From a virus: a DNA stretch of 55,381 nt. The position numbers and the translations under genes were made by a program. This document shows positions 1,423-52,184 of the stretch, in pieces. The notes beneath the pieces were generated by a model. The model made no database searches, was not told where the DNA came from, and saw nothing but the letters and a program-made list of their open reading frames with translations. The first letter of the stretch is position 1, and each line of letters begins with the position of its first letter. The DNA lies in IMG/VR virus record IMGVR_UViG_3300000302_000006, positions 1 through 55,381 of that record. One strand, given 5' to 3'.

Positions 1423-3192
1423 ATGTCAAGTCAATATCTTCAGGATAAAGTTTCCGAATATGAAAATTACATAGCGAGAAAAGGCGTTGATGAGTCTGTG
1501 ATTGATGCTATGGCAGATGCGGTTAAATGGGCGATTTACAAAGAAAATGAAATAGAATATGGGCTTAAAGTTTCTGCAAGAGCAAAAGAACTAATTGAGA
1601 GCTTCGTTTTGACTAATTCAGGTGGAACTTTGGACGATTTAGAAGTATACGCCGCAGAAAACGATACGGAATACAAGATTGTGAATGATTATTATGCAAT
1701 TTTACAGTGCGAATCTCCGTATTTAGTCGATAGCTTTTTTAGATACATAGAAGCAGACGAGAAAGACCCGTATAAACGATTTTATTTTCCGAGAAGAAAA
1801 GTTTTAAAGCCTGTTGTGTCTGCGTATCAAGAAATTTATGATGGAAAACTTGATTTTTTATCAGTTTCGCAGCCTAAAAGAACTGGAAAAACCACCGGGG
1901 GATTAAAACTTGCTCAAATGATGGGAGGGCGTGATCCTGACGGAAGTATTTTTGCAGTCGGAAAGGGAGAAGGACTCGTAAAACGATTCTACGGCGGGCT
2001 TTTGCAATCGTTTGAAAATGAAAGTACATATCAAAGGTTTCTTTCTGTATTTCCAGAAGCAAAAAAAATCGGAGAAAAAGACTACAAAAGTGCAGAGAAC
2101 TTATCAATAGATCTGAAAAGAAAAAATATTTTTCCGACATATACTTGTCGTCCGATTGACGGCGCGATTGTTGGATGTACAGAAGCAAATGTGCTTGTTT
2201 ACATTGATGACTGTGTAAAAAATCACGAAGAGGCAAGGAACAGGGATAGACTAGAGTTTCTTTGCGAAAAAGTGACAGATGATGTTCTCGGAAGAAGATT
2301 AGAGGGAACGCCGATTATTATACAGGGTACAAAATATAGTCTTTACGACCCGATTACAGCACTTCAAGCAAAAGCGGACGAACTGGGATGGCGTTGGAAA
2401 GAAGTTGCTATTCCCGCTCTCGACCCCATTTCTGATGAAAGCAACTGGGAAATTTACAGAAAAGATAAAAAAGGTCTCAGGAAAATCTTTACGACTGATT
2501 ACTACAGAAAAGAGAGAATGCTTGTATCTGAGGAAACATGGGCGGCAGAGTTTCAGCAAGAGCCTTATGAAGCAAAAGGCAGAATGTTTCCAGAAAAAGA
2601 ACTTAATTATTTTGAAGAGCTTCCTGTTGACCGAGAACCAGATGCAATTATGGCAGCTTGCGACAGCGCGGATAAGGGAGAAGATAGCTGTTCAATGCCG
2701 GTTGGATATGTGTATGGAAACGAAGTTTACATTGTTGATGTTGTTTTTGACAACGCAGGAGTACAGTTTACCAAACCTGAATGTGCAAATATGTTGATAA
2801 AACACAATGTAAAAACGGTTACGTTTGAGAGTAATAGCGCAGGAGAGTATTTTGGACGAGATGTAATGGATATTGTAAAAACACAGGGCGGAAGATGTAG
2901 TGCAAGATATAAATTCAACTGTGCGAACAAAATTACAAGAATGGAAAATGCAAGGGATAATATTATCAGGGACTATTATTTCAGAGATTTCAAAAAAATG
3001 GACAGAAACAGTCAGTATTACAAGTTTATGAAAGAACTGACTACCATGACACGAACTGGAAAAGTAAAACATGATGATGCGCCGGATTCCATTTCTTTGT
3101 TTGAAAATGAAATGCGAACAGGCACTGTTGCAAGAGTAGAAGCCGTACGAAACCCATTTAGAAGCCATAACGCAGGATATTATGGGAGGTAA
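1423..3192 (+). CDS. terL: terminase large subunit
   Basis: 589 aa. Walker A-like SQPKRTGKTT, Walker B-like VLVYIDD, C-terminal acidic nuclease-type region. Lies upstream of the portal gene. Confidence 0.9.
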   Translation: MSSQYLQDKVSEYENYIARKGVDESVIDAMADAVKWAIYKENEIEYGLKVSARAKELIESFVLTNSGGTLDDLEVYAAENDTEYKIVNDYYAILQCESPYLVDSFFRYIEADEKDPYKRFYFPRRKVLKPVVSAYQEIYDGKLDFLSVSQPKRTGKTTGGLKLAQMMGGRDPDGSIFAVGKGEGLVKRFYGGLLQSFENESTYQRFLSVFPEAKKIGEKDYKSAENLSIDLKRKNIFPTYTCRPIDGAIVGCTEANVLVYIDDCVKNHEEARNRDRLEFLCEKVTDDVLGRRLEGTPIIIQGTKYSLYDPITALQAKADELGWRWKEVAIPALDPISDESNWEIYRKDKKGLRKIFTTDYYRKERMLVSEETWAAEFQQEPYEAKGRMFPEKELNYFEELPVDREPDAIMAACDSADKGEDSCSMPVGYVYGNEVYIVDVVFDNAGVQFTKPECANMLIKHNVKTVTFESNSAGEYFGRDVMDIVKTQGGRCSARYKFNCANKITRMENARDNIIRDYYFRDFKKMDRNSQYYKFMKELTTMTRTGKVKHDDAPDSISLFENEMRTGTVARVEAVRNPFRSHNAGYYGR

Positions 3193-3195
3193 TAC

Positions 3196-3609
3196 ATGAA
3201 AGCAAAGCAATATTTACTTCAAATTGATTATTACGATAAAAGGATTACAAATAAACTTTCTGAGCTTGCGCAATGGAGAACACTTGCATCTAGCACAGGA
3301 TCGCAGACTGACGGAGAACGAGTTCAGACAAGCCCAAAAGATAGACTGTCAACGGTCGTGAGTAAAATTGTTGATATTGAACGAGAAATTGATTTTCTAA
3401 TAGATGAGTATACAGAAAAAAAGCAGGAAATCATAAGAACAATAGAAAGCATTGACAATACCAATTATTACGATTTGCTTTTCAAGGTTTACATAGAGCA
3501 TAAATTTTTACATGAAGCTGCTGCTGAAATGAATTATTCTTATACCAGAGTTCGTCATATGCATAAAGAAGCACTCAATTCTGTTGATAAAATTATAAAT
3601 AGCACATAA
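3196..3609 (+). CDS. sigma-region-4-like / DUF1492-ArpU-type phage transcriptional regulator
   Basis: 137 aa. N-terminal coiled segment plus a C-terminal HTH-like EAAAEMNYSYTRVRHMHKEAL, the pattern typical of Gram-positive phage late regulators. Confidence 0.55.
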   Translation: MKAKQYLLQIDYYDKRITNKLSELAQWRTLASSTGSQTDGERVQTSPKDRLSTVVSKIVDIEREIDFLIDEYTEKKQEIIRTIESIDNTNYYDLLFKVYIEHKFLHEAAAEMNYSYTRVRHMHKEALNSVDKIINST

Positions 3610-3636
3610 TAGCACACTTTAGCACAACATAGCACA
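3600..3636 (+). repeat. Four TAGCACA boxes at exact 10-bp spacing (3600, 3610, 3620, 3630)
   Basis: Read directly: aTAGCACAtaaTAGCACActtTAGCACAacaTAGCACAta, overlapping the stop codon of 3196..3609. Confidence 0.8.
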
Positions 3637-3722
3637 TAAAAAATATGATAGTATTAGAATTGGAAACAGAGACAACAAGTTACTTTTTTCATAATTTACA
3701 TCCTTTCATTAAGTACGGAGAG

Positions 3723-3751
3723 AGCATCGTTTAAATAAACGGTGCTTTTTT
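3723..3751 (+). terminator. rho-independent terminator
   Basis: 10-bp stem AGCATCGTTT/AAACGGTGCT, 4-nt loop, followed by T5. Confidence 0.7.
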
Positions 3752-3770
3752 CGTGCAGAAAAGAGATAAC

Positions 3771-3971
3771 ATGAACGAATATATTTCAAAAACAATATAC
3801 TGCCCGAAGTGCGGTCGGAAATGCGGCACTTATGATGGCAGATCAACAATTGATAAGGTATGCAGATGTAAGAAATGCAATAAACGCATTGTATATCATA
3901 TTGCAACTGGAGAAGTAGAGAGAAAAGACATTCCGAAGAGAAATTGTAGTTCTGGAATGATATTTGTGTAA
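3771..3971 (+). CDS. zinc-ribbon protein (Mu Com-like CxxC...CxxC)
   Basis: YCPKCGRKCG...CRCKKCNKRIVYH. 66 aa, immediately upstream of the portal gene. Confidence 0.55.
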   Translation: MNEYISKTIYCPKCGRKCGTYDGRSTIDKVCRCKKCNKRIVYHIATGEVERKDIPKRNCSSGMIFV

Positions 3972-3985
3972 AAGGCGGGTAAGCA

Positions 3986-5461
3986 ATGAACGATAAAAGC
4001 CTGCAAGACCTTGTTAAAGGCAGATACGGACGAAAAATTGCATATGCAGACGTTGAGACGATTACTTCTGAAAATGTTTTAGAGGTTGTGTCGGAAAATA
4101 TAGGAATTTTTAACTTTAACAGAGGAATCACCAAGTATCTGTGGGACTACAAAAAAGGCGATCAGCCGGTACTTTACCGGACAAAGGTTGAAAGAGACGA
4201 CATTATCAATAAAGTGGTAGAAAACCATGCTTACGAAATTGTTCAGTTTAATGTAGCGCAGACTTACGGCGAACCGATTCAGTATGTAAGCACACAAGAC
4301 AGCGAAGAAGTAAACGATTCTGTTGATACGTTTAATGATTATATGAAAAGAGCCTTTAAGCATCAAAGGAATGTAGCACAAGGCGAATGGAAATCTGCTA
4401 CTGGAACATCATTTCTTGCGGTACAAAAGACGGGAAATAAAGACAAGCCGTTCAGAATTGTAGTTCCTACACCCATGAATACGTTCGCTATCTATTCTTC
4501 TTACACGGGAGAGCACATACTTTCTGTTCAGGAATTGAAAGACACAGACGGACACCAATATTATCTCTGCTTTTCTGAAAACATGGAATTTAAAATCAAA
4601 AACGGGAAAGTAGTAGACCATAAACCACACGGATTTGGCGGAATCCCTATCGTAGAGATACCGAATAATCAGGATCGGTTGTCTGATATAGAAATTGTCA
4701 TTACTCTGCTTGATAGTATAAACACTATGCAAAGCAACCGCATGGACGGCGTTGAACAGTTCGTCCAGGCTTGGATCAAGTTTGTGAATTGCGAAGTTGA
4801 CGAAGAGCAGTTCCAGAAAATGAAAATGCTCGGTGCGCTTGTAGTTAAATCAAATAACGGTTCAGATAATAAAGCTGATGTAGATGTAATGACAAACGAA
4901 CTTGACCAGACTCAGTGTCAGGTCGCAAAAGATGATATCTGGGATAATGCACTGAGCATCTTGGCGATCCCGTCTAAACAGGGAAATACCGGAGGAGATA
5001 CGCAGGGAGCGGTAGAGCTTCGTAATGGATGGGATTTCTCTAAAAACAGGGCAAAATTAAAAGACGCTTATGTTATTGAGGCGGAAGAAAAATTAGCAGA
5101 TGTGGCATTGAATATTCTTCGAATAGAGGGACAATCGCTGAATATTACATCAAATGATTTTGAGGTAAATATTCCGCACAGCCCACAGGATAACATGACC
5201 GTAAAGGCGAATGTATTTTTACTTTTGGTGCAAGCCGGCATTCATCCGTTGATTGCAATTAAGACTTGTGGACTTTGGAATGATGCGGAAAAGGTATTCC
5301 TCATGTCAAAGCCGTATCTTGATGCAAAATATAAGACGATAGATGAAATGATTTCTGAAATTCCTAATTCAGAGGAACAGATAAAGAAAGCAGAAGAAAT
5401 CAAAAATAATCTTGAAAAACAGGATAACGAGAAACAGGGAAAAAAGACAGTTACCGAGTAA
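3986..5461 (+). CDS. portal protein (SPP1 gp6-like size and position)
   Basis: 491 aa. Position between terL and scaffold; acidic C-terminus. Confidence 0.8.
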   Translation: MNDKSLQDLVKGRYGRKIAYADVETITSENVLEVVSENIGIFNFNRGITKYLWDYKKGDQPVLYRTKVERDDIINKVVENHAYEIVQFNVAQTYGEPIQYVSTQDSEEVNDSVDTFNDYMKRAFKHQRNVAQGEWKSATGTSFLAVQKTGNKDKPFRIVVPTPMNTFAIYSSYTGEHILSVQELKDTDGHQYYLCFSENMEFKIKNGKVVDHKPHGFGGIPIVEIPNNQDRLSDIEIVITLLDSINTMQSNRMDGVEQFVQAWIKFVNCEVDEEQFQKMKMLGALVVKSNNGSDNKADVDVMTNELDQTQCQVAKDDIWDNALSILAIPSKQGNTGGDTQGAVELRNGWDFSKNRAKLKDAYVIEAEEKLADVALNILRIEGQSLNITSNDFEVNIPHSPQDNMTVKANVFLLLVQAGIHPLIAIKTCGLWNDAEKVFLMSKPYLDAKYKTIDEMISEIPNSEEQIKKAEEIKNNLEKQDNEKQGKKTVTE

Positions 5462-27788: not shown

Positions 27789-28130
27789 TTAACCCTCACT
27801 TAATAGATTTATCAATTCAATAACGTGCTTTTTCTTCTTGTCGGACAGATCAAAGTATTTCTCCAATGCCTGAGTTAGTCCGGCATCATTTCTTATCTTT
27901 GCGACAAGGTGAGCAGATTCAGCACCATATTTGTCAAACTCAGGTTCTTTTCCTGTTGTTAAATATTCCAACGACACACCGAAATAATCAGCAATCTTTT
28001 GCAAGGTTTTTGTGTTTGGATTTATTTTGTCTAATTTAGATATATAGCCTTTTGCGAGACCAATTTCGATTTCAGCAAGGTTCATTGAAATACCTTTTAT
28101 CTTACACAGTTCTTTTACTCTTTCTTTCAT
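27789..28130 (-). CDS. CI-like XRE-family repressor
   Basis: N-terminal HTH (ISMNLAEIEIGLAKGYISKLD...LQKIADYFGVSLEYL). Divergent from the cro-like gene. Confidence 0.8.
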   Translation of the reverse strand: MKERVKELCKIKGISMNLAEIEIGLAKGYISKLDKINPNTKTLQKIADYFGVSLEYLTTGKEPEFDKYGAESAHLVAKIRNDAGLTQALEKYFDLSDKKKKHVIELINLLSEG

Positions 28131-28562: not shown

Positions 28563-29339
28563 ATGAACGAATTACAGATTTTTGTTTCAAAAGAGTTCGG
28601 AGAGATTCGGACAGTAACTATTGACAATGAACCGTGGTTTGTTGGAAAGGATGTAGCAACTGCACTCGGGTACAAAAATACGAGACAGGCAATTTTAACA
28701 AACGTCATGGATGAAGATAAGGGAGTCCATTCCGTGGACACCCCCTCTGGAAAGCAGGAAATGACGGTAATCAACGAGTCCGGCTTATACGCTCTCATCT
28801 TCGGTAGCAAACTCGATTCAGCAAAGCGGTTTAAGCACTGGGTAACAAGTGAAGTTCTGCCGAGTATACGGAAACACGGAATGTATGCAGTGGATGAGCT
28901 TGTAAATAATCCAGAACTACTTATTAAAGTAGCGACCGAATTGAAAGAAGAACGTGAGAAGAACAGGGAGCTTGAGAATACCGTACATGAAATGAATAAA
29001 ACAATCGGCGAGCTTACACCGAAAGCAAATTATGTAGATGTTATTCTCAAAAGTAAATCCACGGTTCTTGTGACTCAGATAGCGCAGGATTACGGGATGT
29101 CAGCAAAGGCATTTAATAAGCTGCTCAAAGATTTGCACATTCAGCATAAAGTAGGACAGCAGTGGATTTTATATCGACCGTATCTTGGAAACGATTATGT
29201 TCACAGCAAAACCATTGACATCATACGTTCGGACGGAAGACCTGATGTGAAGATGCAGACTGAATGGACACAAAAAGGAAGGCTGTTTCTTTATGAAACG
29301 CTTAAAGAACATGACATTTATCCATTGATAGAAAGGTGA
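28563..29339 (+). CDS. antirepressor (BRO-N + KilAC/ANT domains)
   Basis: [34 protein letters not shown] (BRO-N). C-terminal ANT-like [25 protein letters not shown]. Confidence 0.85.
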
Positions 29340-43393: not shown

Positions 43394-44584
43394 ATGGGAA
43401 AGGATTTGAAAGGAAAAGAACTTGGTGTAGGATTATCACAAAGAAAGGATGGTGTTTATCAGGCGAGATATATCGATAGATGGGGGAAAAGAAAAACCAT
43501 CTATGGTAAAAGTATAAGGGAATTGCGTAAAGAATTGTCGATAGCAATTTCCGAAAATGAAACATTCACAAGTGTTAGAGAAAAAGTAACACTGGACGAG
43601 TGGTTCAAACAATGGATGGAAGTATACAAAGAAAAAAGCATAAGACCAAATACAAAAAGAGAATATACATACATATATGAGAAGAATATCTCTCCGTATA
43701 TTGGCGGAAGATACTTAAATTCACTTGTAAAAACAGATGTGCAGCGGTTGATCGACACGGCGTATGATTTGGGGTATCAGTATGAACGCCAGAACAAAAT
43801 AAAAATAGTATTACGAGATATGCTACAAAGAGCTTTTGAAGATCATCTGGTATCTGGAAATCCTGTCAGCGGAATAAAGCTGAGATCAGACAAGACCATA
43901 AAGGCAAAGGCATTGGCTCTTGAAGAACAAAATGTATTTTTTGAATATTGCCGGAACACGTTTTATGACAATCTCTTTAATGTGGCAGTAAATACAGGAT
44001 TACGACCGGGAGAGCTATTTGCTCTTCAATTATCGGATATAGACATGGAGAATGGCTACATAGATGTAAATAAGACGCTTGTATATCAAAAGTATTTGAC
44101 AGATACTCGCAAGACATTTCACATGGAACCGCCAAAAACAAAGCAGAGTTACAGGAAAGTTCCAATCAACAGCGTGTGCCGAATATATCTGGAAAGACAG
44201 TTTGAATTAAAGAAAATTATATCAGAGAAACGGCCAAAGCAGCAAAACAATTATTTGTTTGTCACAAAATTTAATACGCCTTTAAATTCTGTTATTTACT
44301 CAGATGCGATCAAGTCGGTTATTCGTCAAATAAACCTTATGAGATCAAAGGAGAATCAGTTTCCGGTATTCAGCGGTCATACGTTTAGGCATACGTTTGC
44401 GACAAGGTGCTTTGAAAATGGTATAGAGCCGAAAGTGGTTCAGTCATATTTAGGTCATGCCAGTTTGAAAATGACAATGGATTTGTACACTCATGTTACG
44501 GATGCTAAATCATCCTATGATATTGAAAAAATCGTGCCAGACTTCAATGATAATTTGATTGATTTCAGGTCAAAAATATCATAA
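43394..44584 (+). CDS. int: tyrosine integrase
   Basis: 396 aa. SGHTFRHTFATRCF...LGHASLKMTMDLYTHV (R-H-R-Y catalytic pattern). Confidence 0.9.
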   Translation: MGKDLKGKELGVGLSQRKDGVYQARYIDRWGKRKTIYGKSIRELRKELSIAISENETFTSVREKVTLDEWFKQWMEVYKEKSIRPNTKREYTYIYEKNISPYIGGRYLNSLVKTDVQRLIDTAYDLGYQYERQNKIKIVLRDMLQRAFEDHLVSGNPVSGIKLRSDKTIKAKALALEEQNVFFEYCRNTFYDNLFNVAVNTGLRPGELFALQLSDIDMENGYIDVNKTLVYQKYLTDTRKTFHMEPPKTKQSYRKVPINSVCRIYLERQFELKKIISEKRPKQQNNYLFVTKFNTPLNSVIYSDAIKSVIRQINLMRSKENQFPVFSGHTFRHTFATRCFENGIEPKVVQSYLGHASLKMTMDLYTHVTDAKSSYDIEKIVPDFNDNLIDFRSKIS

Positions 44585-48266: not shown

Positions 48267-48593
48267 ATGTTTCAAGTAAACGGATTAAATTGGCGTATAA
48301 GCCTTGTAGAGCCTCACAGCCATATGCTGAGACGGTCGGACAGGAGTTATACAGTCGGAATGTGTGATAGAACAGAACAAACAATTTATGTTTCTTCTGC
48401 ATTACAAGGAGAATTTTTAAGAAAGGTTCTTATACACGAAGTTTGTCATTCGGCAATGATGAGTTATGGAATCATAATGAGTATAGAACAAGAAGAGCTA
48501 TTCTGTGATTTAATTGCAACATACGGTGATGAAATATTTGAAATCGCAGACAGAGTATTTGCGGCATTAAATCAAAATAGGATAGTGGCATAA
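48267..48593 (+). CDS. HExxH metallopeptidase-like protein (ImmA/IrrE, M78-like)
   Basis: VLIHEVCHSAMMSYG. Confidence 0.6.
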   Translation: MFQVNGLNWRISLVEPHSHMLRRSDRSYTVGMCDRTEQTIYVSSALQGEFLRKVLIHEVCHSAMMSYGIIMSIEQEELFCDLIATYGDEIFEIADRVFAALNQNRIVA

Positions 48594-48693: not shown

Positions 48694-48867
48694 ATGTCGC
48701 CAAGGACTGGAAGACCAAAGTCTGACAATCCAATGAACGAAAGAATGTTTATTCGTGTCACAAAAGAAGAAAAAGAAGAAATTATGCAATTTTCCAAGGA
48801 CAGTGGATATACACTTCTTGAGTTAATTAAAATTGGGATTGAAAAGGTAAAAAGTCTAAAAAAATAG
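48694..48867 (+). CDS. ribbon-helix-helix protein (CopG/MobC-like)
   Basis: RTGRPKSDNPMNERMFIRVTKEEKEEIMQFSKDSGYTLLELIKIGI. Confidence 0.6.
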   Translation: MSPRTGRPKSDNPMNERMFIRVTKEEKEEIMQFSKDSGYTLLELIKIGIEKVKSLKK

Positions 48868-48990: not shown

Positions 48991-49158
48991 ATGAACAAAG
49001 AAGAATTATTAAATGGAAGAACGGATATTACCGCATATCAGATGGCGATTATTCGCATGGTTTTGAGTATACGCAACGGACTTTCCATATATCGTATATT
49101 TCATTATGTATTTGTGAAATACAGGAAGGGAACGAAAGGCGGTGATGTAAATGAATAA
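48991..49158 (+). CDS. hypothetical (55 aa)
   Basis: TAGGAGG SD. Confidence 0.45.
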   Translation: MNKEELLNGRTDITAYQMAIIRMVLSIRNGLSIYRIFHYVFVKYRKGTKGGDVNE

Positions 49159-49297
49159 GCATACAGATGAACATAAGGATTATCGTGAAGAAATCCTTGA
49201 TATGGTAAACCAGATTGACCGCACAGATGTTTTGCAATATATCAGCATTATTGTAGAAGACATCTTCAAAGAGATTGGAGGTGTTGTTTGTGAATGA
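49151..49297 (+). CDS. small protein (48 aa), paralog of 27151..27303
   Basis: My own translation. Shared motif YREEILDMVNQIDRTDVLQYISIIVEDI. Confidence 0.5.
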   Translation: MNKHTDEHKDYREEILDMVNQIDRTDVLQYISIIVEDIFKEIGGVVCE

Positions 49298-49331
49298 CGT
49301 TGTAACATATCCGGATTTTTCCGGTAAAAGG

Positions 49332-49356
49332 CAGCCGGGGAAGTGCGCCCCGGCTG
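49332..49356. terminator. GC-rich bidirectional hairpin between convergent genes
   Basis: CAGCCGGGG ... CCCCGGCTG. Confidence 0.6.
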
Positions 49357-49376
49357 TCATCCTCTGCGGCGGTTAA

Positions 49377-49712
49377 TTATGCTATTTTTGTATCTGTCCA
49401 GAGATTTAAAAGAGTTCTAAAGCGGTTCAGTTCGTCAACCGTGAAACCGTCGTTGATATGGAAAATTGCGTGATCTCCGAACTTTTCGTTGATGTCCTGA
49501 ACGTGATTATAAAACTCTTCAAATCTTTCTAATTCGTCAACATTCAGGATATAACGTTTTACTTCCGGGTTTCTGATTATGTAGTTGTCCTCTGCCTGTA
49601 CCGGGCTACTGAATAATGCTTCAACGTTTACTTTGCTTTTTCTGTCGTCCTGTGTACTCCTGTCAATCATGGTTACAACTGCCCATTTTAAAAATTTTGT
49701 ATAATCTTTCAT
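49377..49712 (-). CDS. hypothetical protein (111 aa)
   Basis: AGGAGGG SD 7 nt upstream. No motif recognised. Confidence 0.55.
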   Translation of the reverse strand: MKDYTKFLKWAVVTMIDRSTQDDRKSKVNVEALFSSPVQAEDNYIIRNPEVKRYILNVDELERFEEFYNHVQDINEKFGDHAIFHINDGFTVDELNRFRTLLNLWTDTKIA

Positions 49713-49743
49713 TTCGTTTCCCTCCTGTTCTTTTGTTGATATT

Positions 49744-49772
49744 ATCATAGCATAGTTTAATAATATTGTCAA
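49744..49772 (-). promoter_or_regulatory. consensus promoter (TTGACA-17-TATGAT) with GCATAGTTTAATAA box in the spacer
   Basis: -35 at 49767-72 and -10 at 49744-49 on the minus strand. Box at 49750-63. Confidence 0.7.
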
Positions 49773-49846
49773 TAGCATAGTTTAATAATTTAAAAATATT
49801 TTCATTTCATTATTGTATAGGAATAAAAGCAAAACACGGAAAGCTG

Positions 49847-49875
49847 TTGACGCATAGTTTAATAAATGCTATACT
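49847..49875 (+). promoter_or_regulatory. consensus promoter (TTGACG-17-TATACT) with GCATAGTTTAATAA box in the spacer
   Basis: Box at 49852-65. Confidence 0.7.
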
Positions 49876-49903
49876 TATATAAAATAACAAGGGAGGTTTG
49901 AAA

Positions 49904-50098
49904 ATGGCTTTTAAAGATAAAGGGAAGGAACTGTCATATATTGCACAATATCAGAAAGATAATTATGATCGCATTACAGTAATGGCTCCGAAGGGAACAA
50001 AAGACGAGATTAAGAAAGCGGCAGAGCTTAAGGGGATGAAAATTTCCGGGTTTGTTCTGGATGCAGTGCAGAAAGAATTGGAAAGAATGAAAGAATAG
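49904..50098 (+). CDS. ribbon-helix-helix (Arc/CopG-like) protein
   Basis: ITVMAPKGTKDEIKKAAELKGMKISGFVLDAVQKELERM. GGGAGG SD. Confidence 0.65.
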   Translation: MAFKDKGKELSYIAQYQKDNYDRITVMAPKGTKDEIKKAAELKGMKISGFVLDAVQKELERMKE

Positions 50099-50112
50099 TT
50101 TAATAAAAACTA

Positions 50113-50141
50113 TTGACGCATAGTTTAATAAGTGCTACAAT
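50113..50141 (+). promoter_or_regulatory. consensus promoter (TTGACG-17-TACAAT) with GCATAGTTTAATAA box in the spacer
   Basis: Box at 50118-31. A partial fifth box lies at 50095-50106. Confidence 0.7.
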
Positions 50142-50166
50142 ATAATCACAGAAAGGTGGTTATATT

Positions 50167-50748
50167 ATGCGTAAGACCGCGAAACAAATTTTTTCAATTC
50201 CTAAAATTCAGAAAGTAGGAATTTATGCGATAAGGAATAAGAAAACTAACAAATATTATATTGGTTCTAGCGTTAATGTTTATAGCAGAATGCTTACACA
50301 TGCCAGAAATATAATTCGTTTCGGTGGAATTAATGAGACTATGGCTAAAGATATAAACGGGAAAAGAGATTTTAAAAATATTGAGTTTATTGTATTAAAA
50401 ACCTTCGAAGATGGAACTATAACAGACAAACAATTAAGGGAAGAAGAGTCAGAAATGTTTAAAAAATATGATTCCATGAATAACGGTTATAATATACAAT
50501 ACACTCATGGAAATGGTAAATTTAACCCAGACGAAAAACTATTCTGCAAGCCTATAACGAATAAATCTAAGGAACAAAATTTTGATGAATTTGTCTTAAG
50601 ACTCCCAGAAGGATCAAAGGAAATTATGGATCAACTTCATGTTGTAAATTATAATGCTTTTATTTACGACATTGTGATTAAAGAATTAAACAGAATTCAG
50701 ACACTAAGAGTAATAGCAGAACAGGCAGAGAACAACCCCGGCGAATAA
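50167..50748 (+). CDS. GIY-YIG nuclease fused to a C-terminal RHH-like domain
   Basis: VGIYAIRNKKTNKYYIGSSVNVYSRMLTH. The C-terminal FVLRLPEGSKEIMDQL...IVIKELNRI aligns by eye to the upstream RHH protein. Confidence 0.7.
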   Translation: MRKTAKQIFSIPKIQKVGIYAIRNKKTNKYYIGSSVNVYSRMLTHARNIIRFGGINETMAKDINGKRDFKNIEFIVLKTFEDGTITDKQLREEESEMFKKYDSMNNGYNIQYTHGNGKFNPDEKLFCKPITNKSKEQNFDEFVLRLPEGSKEIMDQLHVVNYNAFIYDIVIKELNRIQTLRVIAEQAENNPGE

Positions 50749-50762
50749 CCGGGGATTTTTTA
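50736..50762 (+). terminator. rho-independent terminator
   Basis: CCCCGG-7nt-CCGGGG followed by a T-tract. The stop codon lies in the loop. Confidence 0.75.
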
Positions 50763-50770
50763 TTGACAAT

Positions 50771-51015
50771 TAACAGGCAAATAACAGGCACATTAACAAA
50801 GTAACAATGTCCGATAAACCGCGTAAATACGCCACTTTCCAGGTATTTACGAATTAATCTAACACACCGCTAACAAGCAACCTAACAAGGTAACTAACAT
50901 AGTAATCAACAGGGTAAAAATTGACAGAAAAGCCCGTAAATACGCGGTTTTTGATGGTTGCAATCAGTACAGCTAACAGGGTAATTAACACAGTTTCTAA
51001 CACTCAACTAACAGG
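50771..51015 (+). repeat. array of at least 12 same-orientation TAACA(G/A/C) boxes in three clusters with 11-12 bp phasing
   Basis: Box starts at 50771, 50782, 50794, 50802, 50860, 50871, 50883, 50895 (plus CAACA at 50907), 50974, 50986, 50998 and 51009. Confidence 0.85.
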
Positions 51016-51106
51016 CTCTATTAATATATATTATATATAATATAGTCTATTAAAAGAAGAAGAAGGAAAGAATATATAATCTATTCGTTACACTCATAGA
51101 TTATAT

Positions 51107-51140
51107 TACGCGCGTGCGCGCGTGTATGTCTGTGCGTGTA
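51107..51140. repeat. alternating purine-pyrimidine (CG/TG) tract, Z-DNA-prone, next to a very AT-rich block (51020-51105)
   Basis: tacgcgcgtgcgcgcgtgtatgt (23 nt of perfect alternation) plus tgtgcgtgta. Confidence 0.8.
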
Positions 51141-51162
51141 ATTTTTATTTACAATTTTTTTA

Positions 51163-51191
51163 TTGACAGATAATCAAATCAGGTGTATTGT
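51163..51191 (+). promoter_or_regulatory. candidate late promoter
   Basis: TTGACA, 17 nt, TATTGT, with TG immediately upstream. The -10 is weak. Confidence 0.4.
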
Positions 51192-51254
51192 ATAGCCAGA
51201 TAAGTTAATACGATTAAATCCGCCCAGATCCCGGCGGTGTGAAAAGAGACTCGG

Positions 51255-51288
51255 GAGGTCTACACAATTATGTGTGGGCCTCTTTTTT
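51255..51288 (+). terminator. strong rho-independent terminator in the terS leader
   Basis: 12-bp stem GAGGTCTACACA/TGTGTGGGCCTC, loop ATTA, T6. Confidence 0.8.
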
Positions 51289-51312
51289 ATTACAGACAAG
51301 GAGGTGCAGACC

Positions 51313-51951
51313 GTGGCAGAGGTTGAAAAGATAGAAGCGGATCAGGTCGAAGTATTTGATAACAAGATCGATGAAGCTCTGGCTATGTTCTGCGAATACC
51401 AGGGAATAAAGGATATTAGGAGAGAGAGTCAAAGTGTTTGGAATGCTGCATTGATGTATATTAGACGTTATGTATTTCCTACACCTGATGTACTTAAAAG
51501 AGATAAGCCTTTAGATGGATATAGTAATAATAATTATAATAATCAATACAGTAATCTTAATAATACTAACTGTAACAGTTATGATACAGATTTGGTAAAT
51601 AGTGTATGTGATTATTATATATACATTTGCAATTTATACGATAAAGGAGTAACTATAACAGGGTTTTGTAAATTAACAGGGATAAGTGAAACAGTAATAT
51701 ATGAGTGGGGACATGATGACAGAAAACTAAGTCAATCCAGTTCGGAGATTTACAAAAAATTATCAAGAGAATATGAGAATAGTGCCGAATCTAAGCTGTG
51801 GGGTAATAAAAATCCGGTTGCAGTCATGGCGATTCTAAACAAGCGATTTGGCTGGAATCTCCCCGGAGTCAGCAAGGAGCAAGCGATAAAAGCCCCGATC
51901 ACATCAGACAAACTGCCGGATTTAACGCAGCAGATTGAGAAGAAAGATTGA
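51313..51951 (+). CDS. terS: terminase small subunit (gp3-packaging-type)
   Basis: GTG start 8 nt after AAGGAGG. ITGFCKLTGISETVIYEW...NPVAVMAILNKRFGW matches the HTH plus '..IF.LKN.FGW' TerS pattern. Asn/Tyr-rich linker. Confidence 0.65.
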   Translation: MAEVEKIEADQVEVFDNKIDEALAMFCEYQGIKDIRRESQSVWNAALMYIRRYVFPTPDVLKRDKPLDGYSNNNYNNQYSNLNNTNCNSYDTDLVNSVCDYYIYICNLYDKGVTITGFCKLTGISETVIYEWGHDDRKLSQSSSEIYKKLSREYENSAESKLWGNKNPVAVMAILNKRFGWNLPGVSKEQAIKAPITSDKLPDLTQQIEKKD

Positions 51952-52184
51952 TGTATTTTAATTCATATAGCCCATAATACAAGATATAGTATTATAGACA
52001 ATGGAAACACGACATATTGATTTAATCTATACAGAAAATAAGTGCTTGTCGTATAGATTGAATATTTAATATATTGTCAGATAATTAATGGCATTGACGG
52101 GGTAGGGGTCTGAGAGAATCGCCACACGAGCCTAACTTAGTCCCCCGAATATTCTCAAAAATAAAAAGGGAGGTTCCGTAGGAG

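Follow-up and report, generated by a model that had tools for sequence, protein, structure and literature searches.

Which protein reads the 14-bp box that recurs in a short control region of the phage record IMGVR_UViG_3300000302_000006 (IMG/VR), and what is a GIY-YIG nuclease doing behind it? The window, that is, the whole stretch of DNA analysed, is 55,381 nt long, and its coordinates are used throughout unless another locus is named. The region (49747–50156) encodes a 64-aa protein of the ribbon-helix-helix (RHH) type and is followed by the gene of a 193-aa nuclease. It was compared with about 250 related loci (L numbers), gathered through the nuclease, a terS-like gene, the operator pattern and the regulator. 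We consider it probable that the region is a repressor-gated accessory slot, an autorepressed hub, and that this slot holds a free-standing homing-type endonuclease.

Predicted operators and promoters of the control region

Exact copies of the box GCATAGTTTAATAA occur at 49750, 49775, 49852 and 50118, and a copy with one mismatch, GAATAGTTTAATAA, occupies 50093–50106. These five boxes (four exact, one with one mismatch) are packed into 380 bp; the remainder of the 55,381-bp window contains no further copy within two mismatches, and the number of exact copies expected per window, estimated from the composition, is 0.0013. The pairs 49750/49775 and 50093/50118 have the same spacing, 25 bp, and all five boxes are on the plus strand irrespective of the promoter direction. 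The first-pass annotation of this DNA had described four full boxes, a partial one at the RHH stop codon, and three near-consensus promoters with 17-nt spacers, each holding one box. All its coordinates for boxes, promoters and genes were correct on re-check, and a promoter scan found the same three promoters, each with a TG-extended -10 element. In each of them the box starts at or beside the -35 element.

The leftward promoter, P_left (49744–49772, minus strand), has the structure TTGACA-17-TATGAT, with 11 matches of 12. Its spacer contains the candidate operator O1 (49750–49763), whereas O2 (49775–49788), the full box between the divergent promoters, is an exact match situated 25 bp from O1, immediately upstream of the P_left -35 element. 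The O1/O2 pair is also found in hubs of the same type. The regulator's own promoter, P_reg (49847–49875, plus strand; TTGACG-17-TATACT, 10 of 12), contains O3 (49852–49865) in its spacer, the position expected for autoregulation. The box at the stop codon of the regulator gene, O4 (50093–50106), matches in 13 of 14 positions and lies upstream of the -35 element of the third promoter, P_cargo (50113–50141, plus strand; TTGACG-17-TACAAT, 10 of 12), whose spacer holds O5 (50118–50131). The O4 position is kept in L009, L012, L010, L013, L014, L097 and L100, each with its own box. P_cargo is present also in phages without the nuclease, there ahead of other genes. The rightward unit is closed by a strong intrinsic terminator of the nuclease gene found by a scan (50736–50761, plus strand), CCCCGG-loop-CCGGGG with a T-run, the stop codon being in the loop.

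The regulator

The hub regulator gene (49904–50098, plus strand) encodes the 64-aa RHH protein. It matches the Pfam family TacA1 just above the cut-off (E 2.9e-4, 21.2 bits, cut-off 21) and a PHROG of Arc-like repressors. Comparison of its sequence with the Protein Data Bank (PDB) yielded nothing significant, and hence the fold was examined by modelling. The AlphaFold2 (AF2) model, with the mean predicted local distance difference test score (pLDDT) of 67.7, has a strand at residues 21–29 and helices at 32–42 and 47–63, that is, the beta-alpha-alpha order; it consists of an N-terminal helix and the RHH core, with no further C-terminal domain. Nearly all of the top 45 PDB neighbours of the model are RHH proteins (AtaR, Arc, AmrZ, TacA, CopG), with the template modelling (TM) score up to 0.77 over the target, but with E 0.5 or worse, as the chain is short. 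The first-pass reading of this protein as RHH is thus supported by Pfam, PHROG, the model and its structural neighbours.

The reading head, YDRITVM.P, shows no variation among 27 regulator homologs with 70–97% identity. The family is large: more than 140 clusters at 90% identity, one homolog being present on 311 contigs. The database labels are only "DUF1778 family" or "hypothetical protein".

The nuclease

The rightward cargo gene (50167–50748, plus strand) encodes the 193-aa nuclease. It matches the Pfam family GIY-YIG (PF01541, E 2e-7), TIGR01453, group I intron endonuclease (E 6e-11), and the PADLOC model "HEase", and its best matches in the family libraries, PHROGs included, are homing-endonuclease models. 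The catalytic domain (residues 17–109, 50215–50493) is modelled with the mean pLDDT of 87.8 (block means 82–97). The best Foldseek match is the catalytic domain of I-TevI (1LN0, TM 0.88 over the target, root-mean-square deviation 1.9 Å), and the profile of the nuclease family retrieves I-TevI from the PDB with E 3.6e-8. Residues Y20, Y31, R41, H45, E94 and N109 align with I-TevI Y6, Y17, R27, H31, E75 and N90, respectively. Five of them (Y20, Y31, R41, E94, N109) do not vary in sets of 15 and of 26 family members, and position 45 is His in the window nuclease and Gln in a few relatives. Hence the GIY-YIG catalytic residues are present and intact on a proper alignment.

A flexible linker (approximately residues 110–137, pLDDT below 50 at 133–137) leads to a folded C-terminal domain (CTD), assigned to RHH by the modelled helices, the profile and phrog_31631 (residues 138–189, 50578–50733). 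The model has an extended segment followed by helices at 150–156 and 162–189; the ribbon itself is not visible, the strand being unpaired in a monomer. The resemblance of this domain to the stand-alone regulator, initially seen by eye, is borne out by BLASTP (30% identity over 44 residues, E = 1e-5) and by the match of both proteins to phrog_31631. The profile of 18 nuclease CTDs retrieves Arc (E 0.013) and AmrZ (E 0.056) from the PDB, and the AmrZ segment DKFVVRLPEGMREQI is close to DEFVLRLPEGSKEI of the window nuclease. Pfam matches among the 18 CTDs are RHH_5 in five, Arc in three and RHH_1 in two. The nuclease C-terminus is a true Arc/AmrZ-like RHH domain.

The nuclease family comprises P0001–P0029 and dozens of clusters at 50% identity. 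Its profile yields 447 GIY-YIG-containing matches at E ≤ 1e-10, and dozens of the best 150 also span the RHH domain. A literature search combining GIY-YIG, ribbon-helix-helix and phage produced no paper describing such a fusion, and to our knowledge RHH is not among the DNA-binding modules of characterised I-TevI/Seg-type members. Judged by these alignments, the I-TevI-type catalytic domain on an RHH module constitutes a diverse and unnamed metagenomic family. The presence of the RHH module implies a dimeric design, and the nuclease probably binds its target as a dimer.

The box follows the small regulator

Each of the compared loci has its own repeated box of approximately 12–14 bp. The layout is shared: boxes are situated at about -418/-393, at -316 to -340 and at -75/-50 relative to the start of the first rightward cargo gene, and the promoter copies start directly after TTGAC.

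The identity of the box changes from locus to locus in a regular way. The beta-strand YDRITVMAP is common to the regulators of the window, L005, L009 and L012, and so are the box, letter for letter, and the layout. The nucleases of L009 and L012 are 46–47% identical to that of the window over the catalytic part and end in a helical, non-RHH C-terminus. In L001 and L015 a common helix-turn-helix (HTH) regulator is accompanied by a common box, ACACGAnAATAGAC, and the nuclease C-termini are RHH and helical, respectively. Where the regulator is a different one, the five-to-six-site layout is kept but the box is another: ATAACGCACATATAA in L010, ATTAAGCACTAAT in L013 and TTAGGCACAAATAA in L014 and L018. 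The resulting sets of regulator beta-strands and boxes are RITVMA with GCATAGTTTAATAA, RLNIVF with ATAACGCACATATAA, RINVIL with ATTAAGCACTAAT and RVNCQL with TTAGGCACAAATAA. Thus, as could be expected of a regulator's site, the box is conserved in relatives where the regulator is shared and is replaced by another box where the regulator differs.

The conservation of the box at two operator pairs in 69 loci selected by the pattern is partly circular, and therefore only the unselected fifth box is taken as evidence. In the 53 loci chosen by the other two operator pairs the box at the O3 position was not a selection criterion. All 53 hubs contain it, with at most one mismatch, in the regulator promoter between TTGAC and TATAAT, and none of 2000 random 330-nt sequences matched the O3-position box as closely.

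Since the box changes with the regulator and ignores the nuclease C-terminus in two natural swaps, it is the predicted operator of the small regulator, whether RHH or HTH, and the nuclease C-terminus seems irrelevant to it. The covariation of the beta-strand with the box also provides indirect support for a model in which the ribbon of the regulator dimer would enter the major groove of the repeated sites.

The first-pass annotation had suggested that the nuclease and the regulator might recognise related DNA. The comparison gives no sign of this. The beta-strands differ, EFVLRL in the nuclease and RITVMA in the regulator. L009 and L012 retain the identical box, though their nuclease has no RHH domain. 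Finally, the nucleases P0018 and P0005 are about 96% identical over residues 1–139 and then have different RHH domains, whereas their loci are 88% identical and the control regions hardly differ, the promoter ahead of the nuclease gene included. It is thus unlikely that the nuclease uses its RHH domain for reading the resident operators.

The same facts bear on the idea that the RHH C-terminus is a built-in regulatory module, repressing its own or neighbouring promoters instead of aiming the nuclease. There are parallels: I-TevI is both an endonuclease and an autorepressor of its own promoter (PMC2988022), a built-in regulator was proposed for the RHH domain of AcrIF25 (PMC13551039), and the nuclease CTD and the hub regulators are members of one RHH pool. 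However, the exchange of the domain between P0018 and P0005 leaves the control region as it was, and the box tracks the upstream regulator rather than the CTD. We regard this explanation as improbable.

A candidate self-operator of the nuclease CTD was also considered, the palindrome ATTGCAATAT, present once each in L001 and L007 at about -449/-415 and resembling the operators of RHH regulators of the L109/L113/L008 type. L250 has the ATTGCAAT site of L001 and L007 without change despite the exchange of its CTD, and hence the candidate was dropped.

A portable hub with variable cargo

The five operators, three promoters and the regulator gene together form a unit of 410 bp (49747–50156). Within 49000–52000 only this unit aligns with L179 and L219, at 77–79% identity, and the homology ends at the outer edge of P_left on one side and at the -10 element and the ribosome-binding site (RBS) of P_cargo on the other. 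The hub layout recurs in 69 IMG/VR contigs. In L097 and L100, which have no nuclease, an operator pair and a TTGAC promoter directly follow the regulator stop codon. A recognisable RHH or HTH regulator is present in 64 of the 80 loci anchored at the terS-like gene, and behind it there are from zero to five variable small genes, which belong to many families and are often acidic.

In L255, the cargo gene at 4176–4379 encodes a 67-aa homolog of the anti-CRISPR protein AcrIC5 (Pfam E 3.8e-20, 72 bits with the cut-off 27). Counting downstream, this gene stands third after that of a regulator with 72% identity to the window protein. HicB/Arc-like fusion proteins are found among the cargo behind the same regulator type in other phages.

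The leftward cargo gene of the window (49377–49712, minus strand), downstream of P_left, is an open reading frame (ORF) with an RBS, encoding a 111-aa protein (MKDYTKFLKWAVVTMIDRSTQDD...) that has no match in Pfam, NCBIfam or PADLOC. Its homologs are the first leftward gene in L013, L014 and L101, and other hubs have different leftward genes. The window itself contains no known anti-defence genes, its cargo being the nuclease and this 111-aa protein without a family match. In these alignments the segment 49747–50156 behaves as a self-contained portable cassette with variable cargo on both sides.

Two further kinds of cargo were seen in other loci. In L096 (780–1397) and L252 (3340–3789) the cargo gene opens with an RHH domain of the same subfamily (MTVNLPLGTRAMI..., with HicB/Arc matches) followed by unrelated C-terminal domains; hence RHH fusions recur in the slot. 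In L126 (3192–3881), L103 (1032–1730) and L219 (2445–3236) the slot between the regulator and the terS-like gene is occupied by genes of 229–263-aa proteins with repeated Cys motifs. An AP2 domain is confirmed in the L126 protein (E 3.5e-9), and these proteins may represent another kind of mobile DNA-binding or endonuclease-like genes.

We propose the following sequence of events. The 64-aa protein, made from P_reg, would bind the five 14-bp operators, O1, O3 and O5 filling the spacers between the -35 and -10 elements, and O2 and O4 flanking a -35 element at the 25-bp distance. On entry of the DNA into a regulator-free cell, the three sigma-A promoters would fire together; as the regulator builds up, RNA polymerase would be occluded, and the leftward cargo, the regulator and the rightward cargo would be shut off. 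The expected outcome is a brief pulse of expression upon entry, followed by a low autoregulated level. A small repressor probably shuts off three strong promoters of a cassette used by many related phages for their accessory genes.

Known hubs of similar logic

By analogy, the logic of the hub is that of the autorepressed hubs of the Aca, Reg576 and Arc type, where experiments have established it (for Aca repressors at anti-CRISPR operons and for Arc at Pant of P22), and its wiring would be ordinary in principle. The RHH-type Aca14 controls its own and a neighbouring operon (PMC13551039). As in the Aca systems, a small DNA-binding protein is encoded with the genes it is predicted to control, the operators overlap core promoters, and the cargo includes variable anti-defence genes, here the AcrIC5 homolog behind the same regulator type in L255. 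However, the regulator gene comes first in the hub and the aca gene comes last, and the hub has five 14-bp spacer boxes in the same orientation, whereas Aca14 has an inverted repeat over the -10 element. The likeness considered here is one of logic.

Reg576 of the plasmid p576 is an autoregulated RHH protein providing transient expression of establishment genes after DNA entry, with four promoters (PMC6294495). Shared features are the autoregulated RHH repressor, several sigma-A promoters, and repeated short motifs beside or inside the promoter. On the other hand, p576 is a conjugative Bacillus plasmid with paired 7-bp TTATCCC motifs, mostly upstream of the -35 element, whereas the phage hub is a compact 410-bp bidirectional cassette; again, the established likeness is one of logic.

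The immI region of P22 (arc-ant, mnt), the "ant moron", is a hypervariable insertion near the morphogenetic genes (PMC2629481). There, too, the gene of an Arc-type RHH protein comes first and an effector follows, facing a divergent promoter; unlike the hub, which has one regulator, three promoters and interchangeable cargo, immI encodes a pair of repressors plus an antisense RNA, and an antirepressor serves as the effector. Within Pant, the operator of Arc is situated between the -35 and -10 elements.

Distribution of the nuclease

The nuclease is present in one of the 80 terS-anchored relatives and absent from the other 79. A GIY-YIG gene, confirmed by Pfam, directly follows P_cargo in at least 24 of 46 evaluable same-operator hubs. 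They fall into at least six lineages with only about 30% identity between them, and most nucleases in the P_cargo slot have a non-RHH C-terminus. Signs of decay are visible: the nuclease of L018 is broken into three ORFs (3778–4322), that of L017 is split by an insertion sequence of the IS4/5 family (DUF4096 and DDE_Tnp_1, 2548–3971), and the copies in L190 and L192 are truncated. The GC content of the nuclease gene is 28–29%, compared to 34–39% in most neighbouring windows. Separately, in L250 a second gene (4066–4641, 191 aa) with a faint GIY-YIG match is situated about 1 kb downstream of the first nuclease.

This distribution bears on the models, put forward in the first-pass annotation, in which the two genes form an obligate pair, either a nuclease toxin guarded by the repressor or a nuclease with a dedicated immunity factor. 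The order of a small RHH gene and a nuclease gene behind an autoregulated promoter indeed resembles type II toxin-antitoxin operons, the regulator weakly matches the TacA antitoxin family, and it would gate the promoter of a potentially harmful nuclease, so that transcriptional guarding is real in that sense. However, the regulator occurs without the nuclease in 22 of the 46 same-operator loci, where it drives unrelated cargo, and in 63 of the 64 regulator-bearing terS-anchored loci; in L255 the cargo is an anti-CRISPR gene. Conversely, in most lineages the nuclease family is found behind HTH regulators. The model of the 64-aa regulator has no extra C-terminal domain, and PADLOC reports no defence system save the homing-endonuclease models and weak UzuA and PDC-S14 matches to the GIY-YIG motif. 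Since the partners are unfaithful to each other in distribution, the pair models are largely refuted, and we hold them to be highly improbable.

A closer parallel is provided by the free-standing seg and mob genes of T4-like phages, which occupy a fixed slot, occur sporadically, are replaced and decay, and are modularly retargeted (PMC2988022). The nuclease genes of the hubs have the same set of properties, namely a fixed slot beside conserved DNA, sporadic presence, replacement by other lineages, decay and modular retargeting, and hence the window nuclease is most likely a free-standing homing or marker-exclusion endonuclease. Further points in common with I-TevI and the Seg proteins are the catalytic fold and residues, the division into a catalytic domain and, past a linker, a separate C-terminal module for DNA binding, the intergenic position between conserved genes, and tight expression control (PMC2988022). 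The differences are that the module is RHH and not a zinc finger with a minor-groove helix and HTH or NUMOD, and that the control is likely exerted by a separate repressor and not by the enzyme itself. In the homing model, an I-TevI/Seg-type GIY-YIG enzyme, its usual DNA-binding module replaced by RHH, would be a selfish element (a homing or marker-exclusion endonuclease) that has taken up residence immediately behind the conserved hub, in the first slot, and inherits its tight transcriptional control. It would cut a site in related phages devoid of the nuclease gene, and then be copied in by repair.

Several observations weigh against the proposed combination of an autorepressed hub and a homing endonuclease. 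The boxes are asymmetric and have one orientation, which is unusual for RHH operators, though not unknown. A GIY-YIG gene in about half of the same-operator hubs is a high frequency for a purely selfish element and could mean an advantage to the phage; the 46 loci behind this count were picked by the operator pattern and are not an unbiased sample. We identified no target site of the nuclease and, for the window's own nuclease lineage, no clean pair of filled and empty alleles with the same flanks. Finally, RHH proteins are obligate dimers and I-TevI is a monomer, so that the cleavage mechanism of I-TevI is not simply transferable.

The source of the nuclease RHH domain

A different purpose of the RHH domain is conceivable, namely, that it was captured from the hub repressor of other phages and directs the nuclease to the operator arrays of rivals. 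Cutting would then occur in co-infection or in superinfection of a lysogen, and the rivals would be excluded or their hub would be converted, the nuclease homing into it. The array of a rival would be a conserved, multi-copy and indispensable target beside the insertion slot of the nuclease, the resident genome would be safe as its own operators differ, and an RHH swap, as between P0018 and P0005, would retarget the enzyme.

This explanation is consistent with the observation that the nuclease CTDs intermix with the hub regulators. The P0005 CTD is most similar to the L109 regulator (71%), ahead of any other nuclease CTD, and for the CTDs of P0024, P0030 and P0038, too, the closest sequences are those of regulators. 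The beta-strand YDRISVTLPKGTKE of the L109 regulator recurs in P0002 and P0024, and its C-terminal ...PF tail in P0024 and P0005; the operators of the L109-type hub are TGCAATACATAA / ATTGCAAT. Thus, as far as sequence similarity can tell, the RHH domains of the nucleases and the hub regulators of other phages are drawn from a common pool. Moreover, nucleases with the RHH CTD are found behind HTH regulators in seven of eight lineages, the sole exception being the window, where the beta-strand differs from that of the resident regulator. This pattern suggests that a nuclease tends not to reside behind a regulator whose reading head resembles its own.

A precedent exists in Odn (Gp88) of the Vibrio phage ICP1, a GIY-YIG-superfamily nuclease with a captured DNA-binding domain, whose cleavage of a satellite origin has been demonstrated (PMC8263062). 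In both cases a homing-type nuclease of this superfamily is fused to a domain homologous to the DNA-binding protein of other mobile elements. In Odn, the captured domain is the N-terminal origin-binding RepA_N domain of the satellite, whereas here it is a C-terminal RHH domain related to regulators of other phages.

However, the avoidance pattern is weak (one-sided Fisher p = 0.059, in a set found through the nuclease itself), and none of the fetched loci contains a regulator with the EFVLRL reading head. The window CTD is an outlier, with the best regulator match at 37% (a local tblastn search over the fetched loci gave none closer than about 40%). Common ancestry of the RHH domains is no proof of common targets, and most nucleases in the slot have a non-RHH C-terminus. 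On balance, the targeting of rival operators is possible but doubtful.

The neighbourhood of the hub

The first-pass annotation had also considered a packaging role, in which the nuclease would act with terS and terL on the downstream repeat array, similarly to the HNH proteins of cos phages. The nuclease gene is indeed situated 525 bp upstream of the terS-like gene, with 12 TAACA repeats in 261 bp between them. However, the nuclease is present in just one of 80 phages that carry a relative of the terS-like gene, and around most same-operator hubs the fetched DNA gave no terS-like match. The window and L005 alone have the TAACA array, whereas L094 has other iterons and L001 has none, and the 589-aa large terminase is encoded elsewhere in the window. 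Hence this possibility is extremely improbable.

The repeats themselves form a dense array at 50771–51013, 12 of the 70 TAACA motifs of the whole window. They are arranged in three clusters of four with the spacing of 8–12 bp (mostly 11–12), the clusters being separated by the inverted pair AAACCGCGTAAATACG / CGTAAATACGCGGTTT at 50816–50831 and 50935–50950. The array was seen only in the window and its 99% identical relative L005; in L094, three copies of different iterons, ATCAGTTGCTTATA, are situated upstream of the terS-like gene. The TAACA repeats seem to be a protein-binding site confined to this lineage, either a pac/terS site or an origin, with no link to the nuclease. As a possible target of the nuclease the array was rejected, the other loci with RHH-CTD nucleases having no such array.

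The stretch separating the array from the terS-like gene contains a run of A and T only, with TATATAT repeats (51019–51044), and then alternating CGCGCGTG present twice (51109–51124). The listed start of the terS-like ORF (51274–51951), GTG at 51274, lies inside a terminator-like hairpin (51253–51284), and translation probably starts instead from an in-frame GTG at 51313, preceded by AAGGAGG at 51298–51304. The terS assignment is weak, with a Pfam match to GP3_package below the cut-off (E 7e-5) and an HTH signal. TerL is about 5 kb beyond this gene, provided the window is circular.

Just upstream of the hub are genes at 48267–48593 and 48694–48867, for an SprT/ImmA-like metallopeptidase and a second small RHH protein, the latter NikA/MobC-like and labelled "transcriptional repressor" in PHROG. 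A canonical lysogeny module is situated elsewhere: the gene of a CI-like repressor (27789–28130, minus strand) faces that of an Ant-type antirepressor (28563–29339, plus strand). With this module at 27.8–29.3 kb, the hub is a second, independent regulatory node. The Ant gene is followed by SbcC-like and RecT-like recombination genes, and the integrase gene is at 43394–44584. A blastn search of 49300–51300 against 50,697 phage records yielded no match, and hence this collection contains no annotated close relative.

Implications

As a compact 410-bp search handle, the hub points to slots for accessory genes across a large group of metagenomic phages and prophages. As one hub cargo is a known anti-CRISPR, the small acidic cargo proteins on both sides are good anti-defence candidates. 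The matched regulator beta-strands and operators form a natural data set that could inform the recognition code of RHH proteins.

The nuclease adds RHH, and hence a probably dimeric design, to the GIY-YIG homing endonucleases, with domain swaps visible between near-identical enzymes. Should its RHH domain be aimed at the operators of rivals, it would be the second, independent case of a captured DNA-binding domain after Odn of ICP1, this time between phages.

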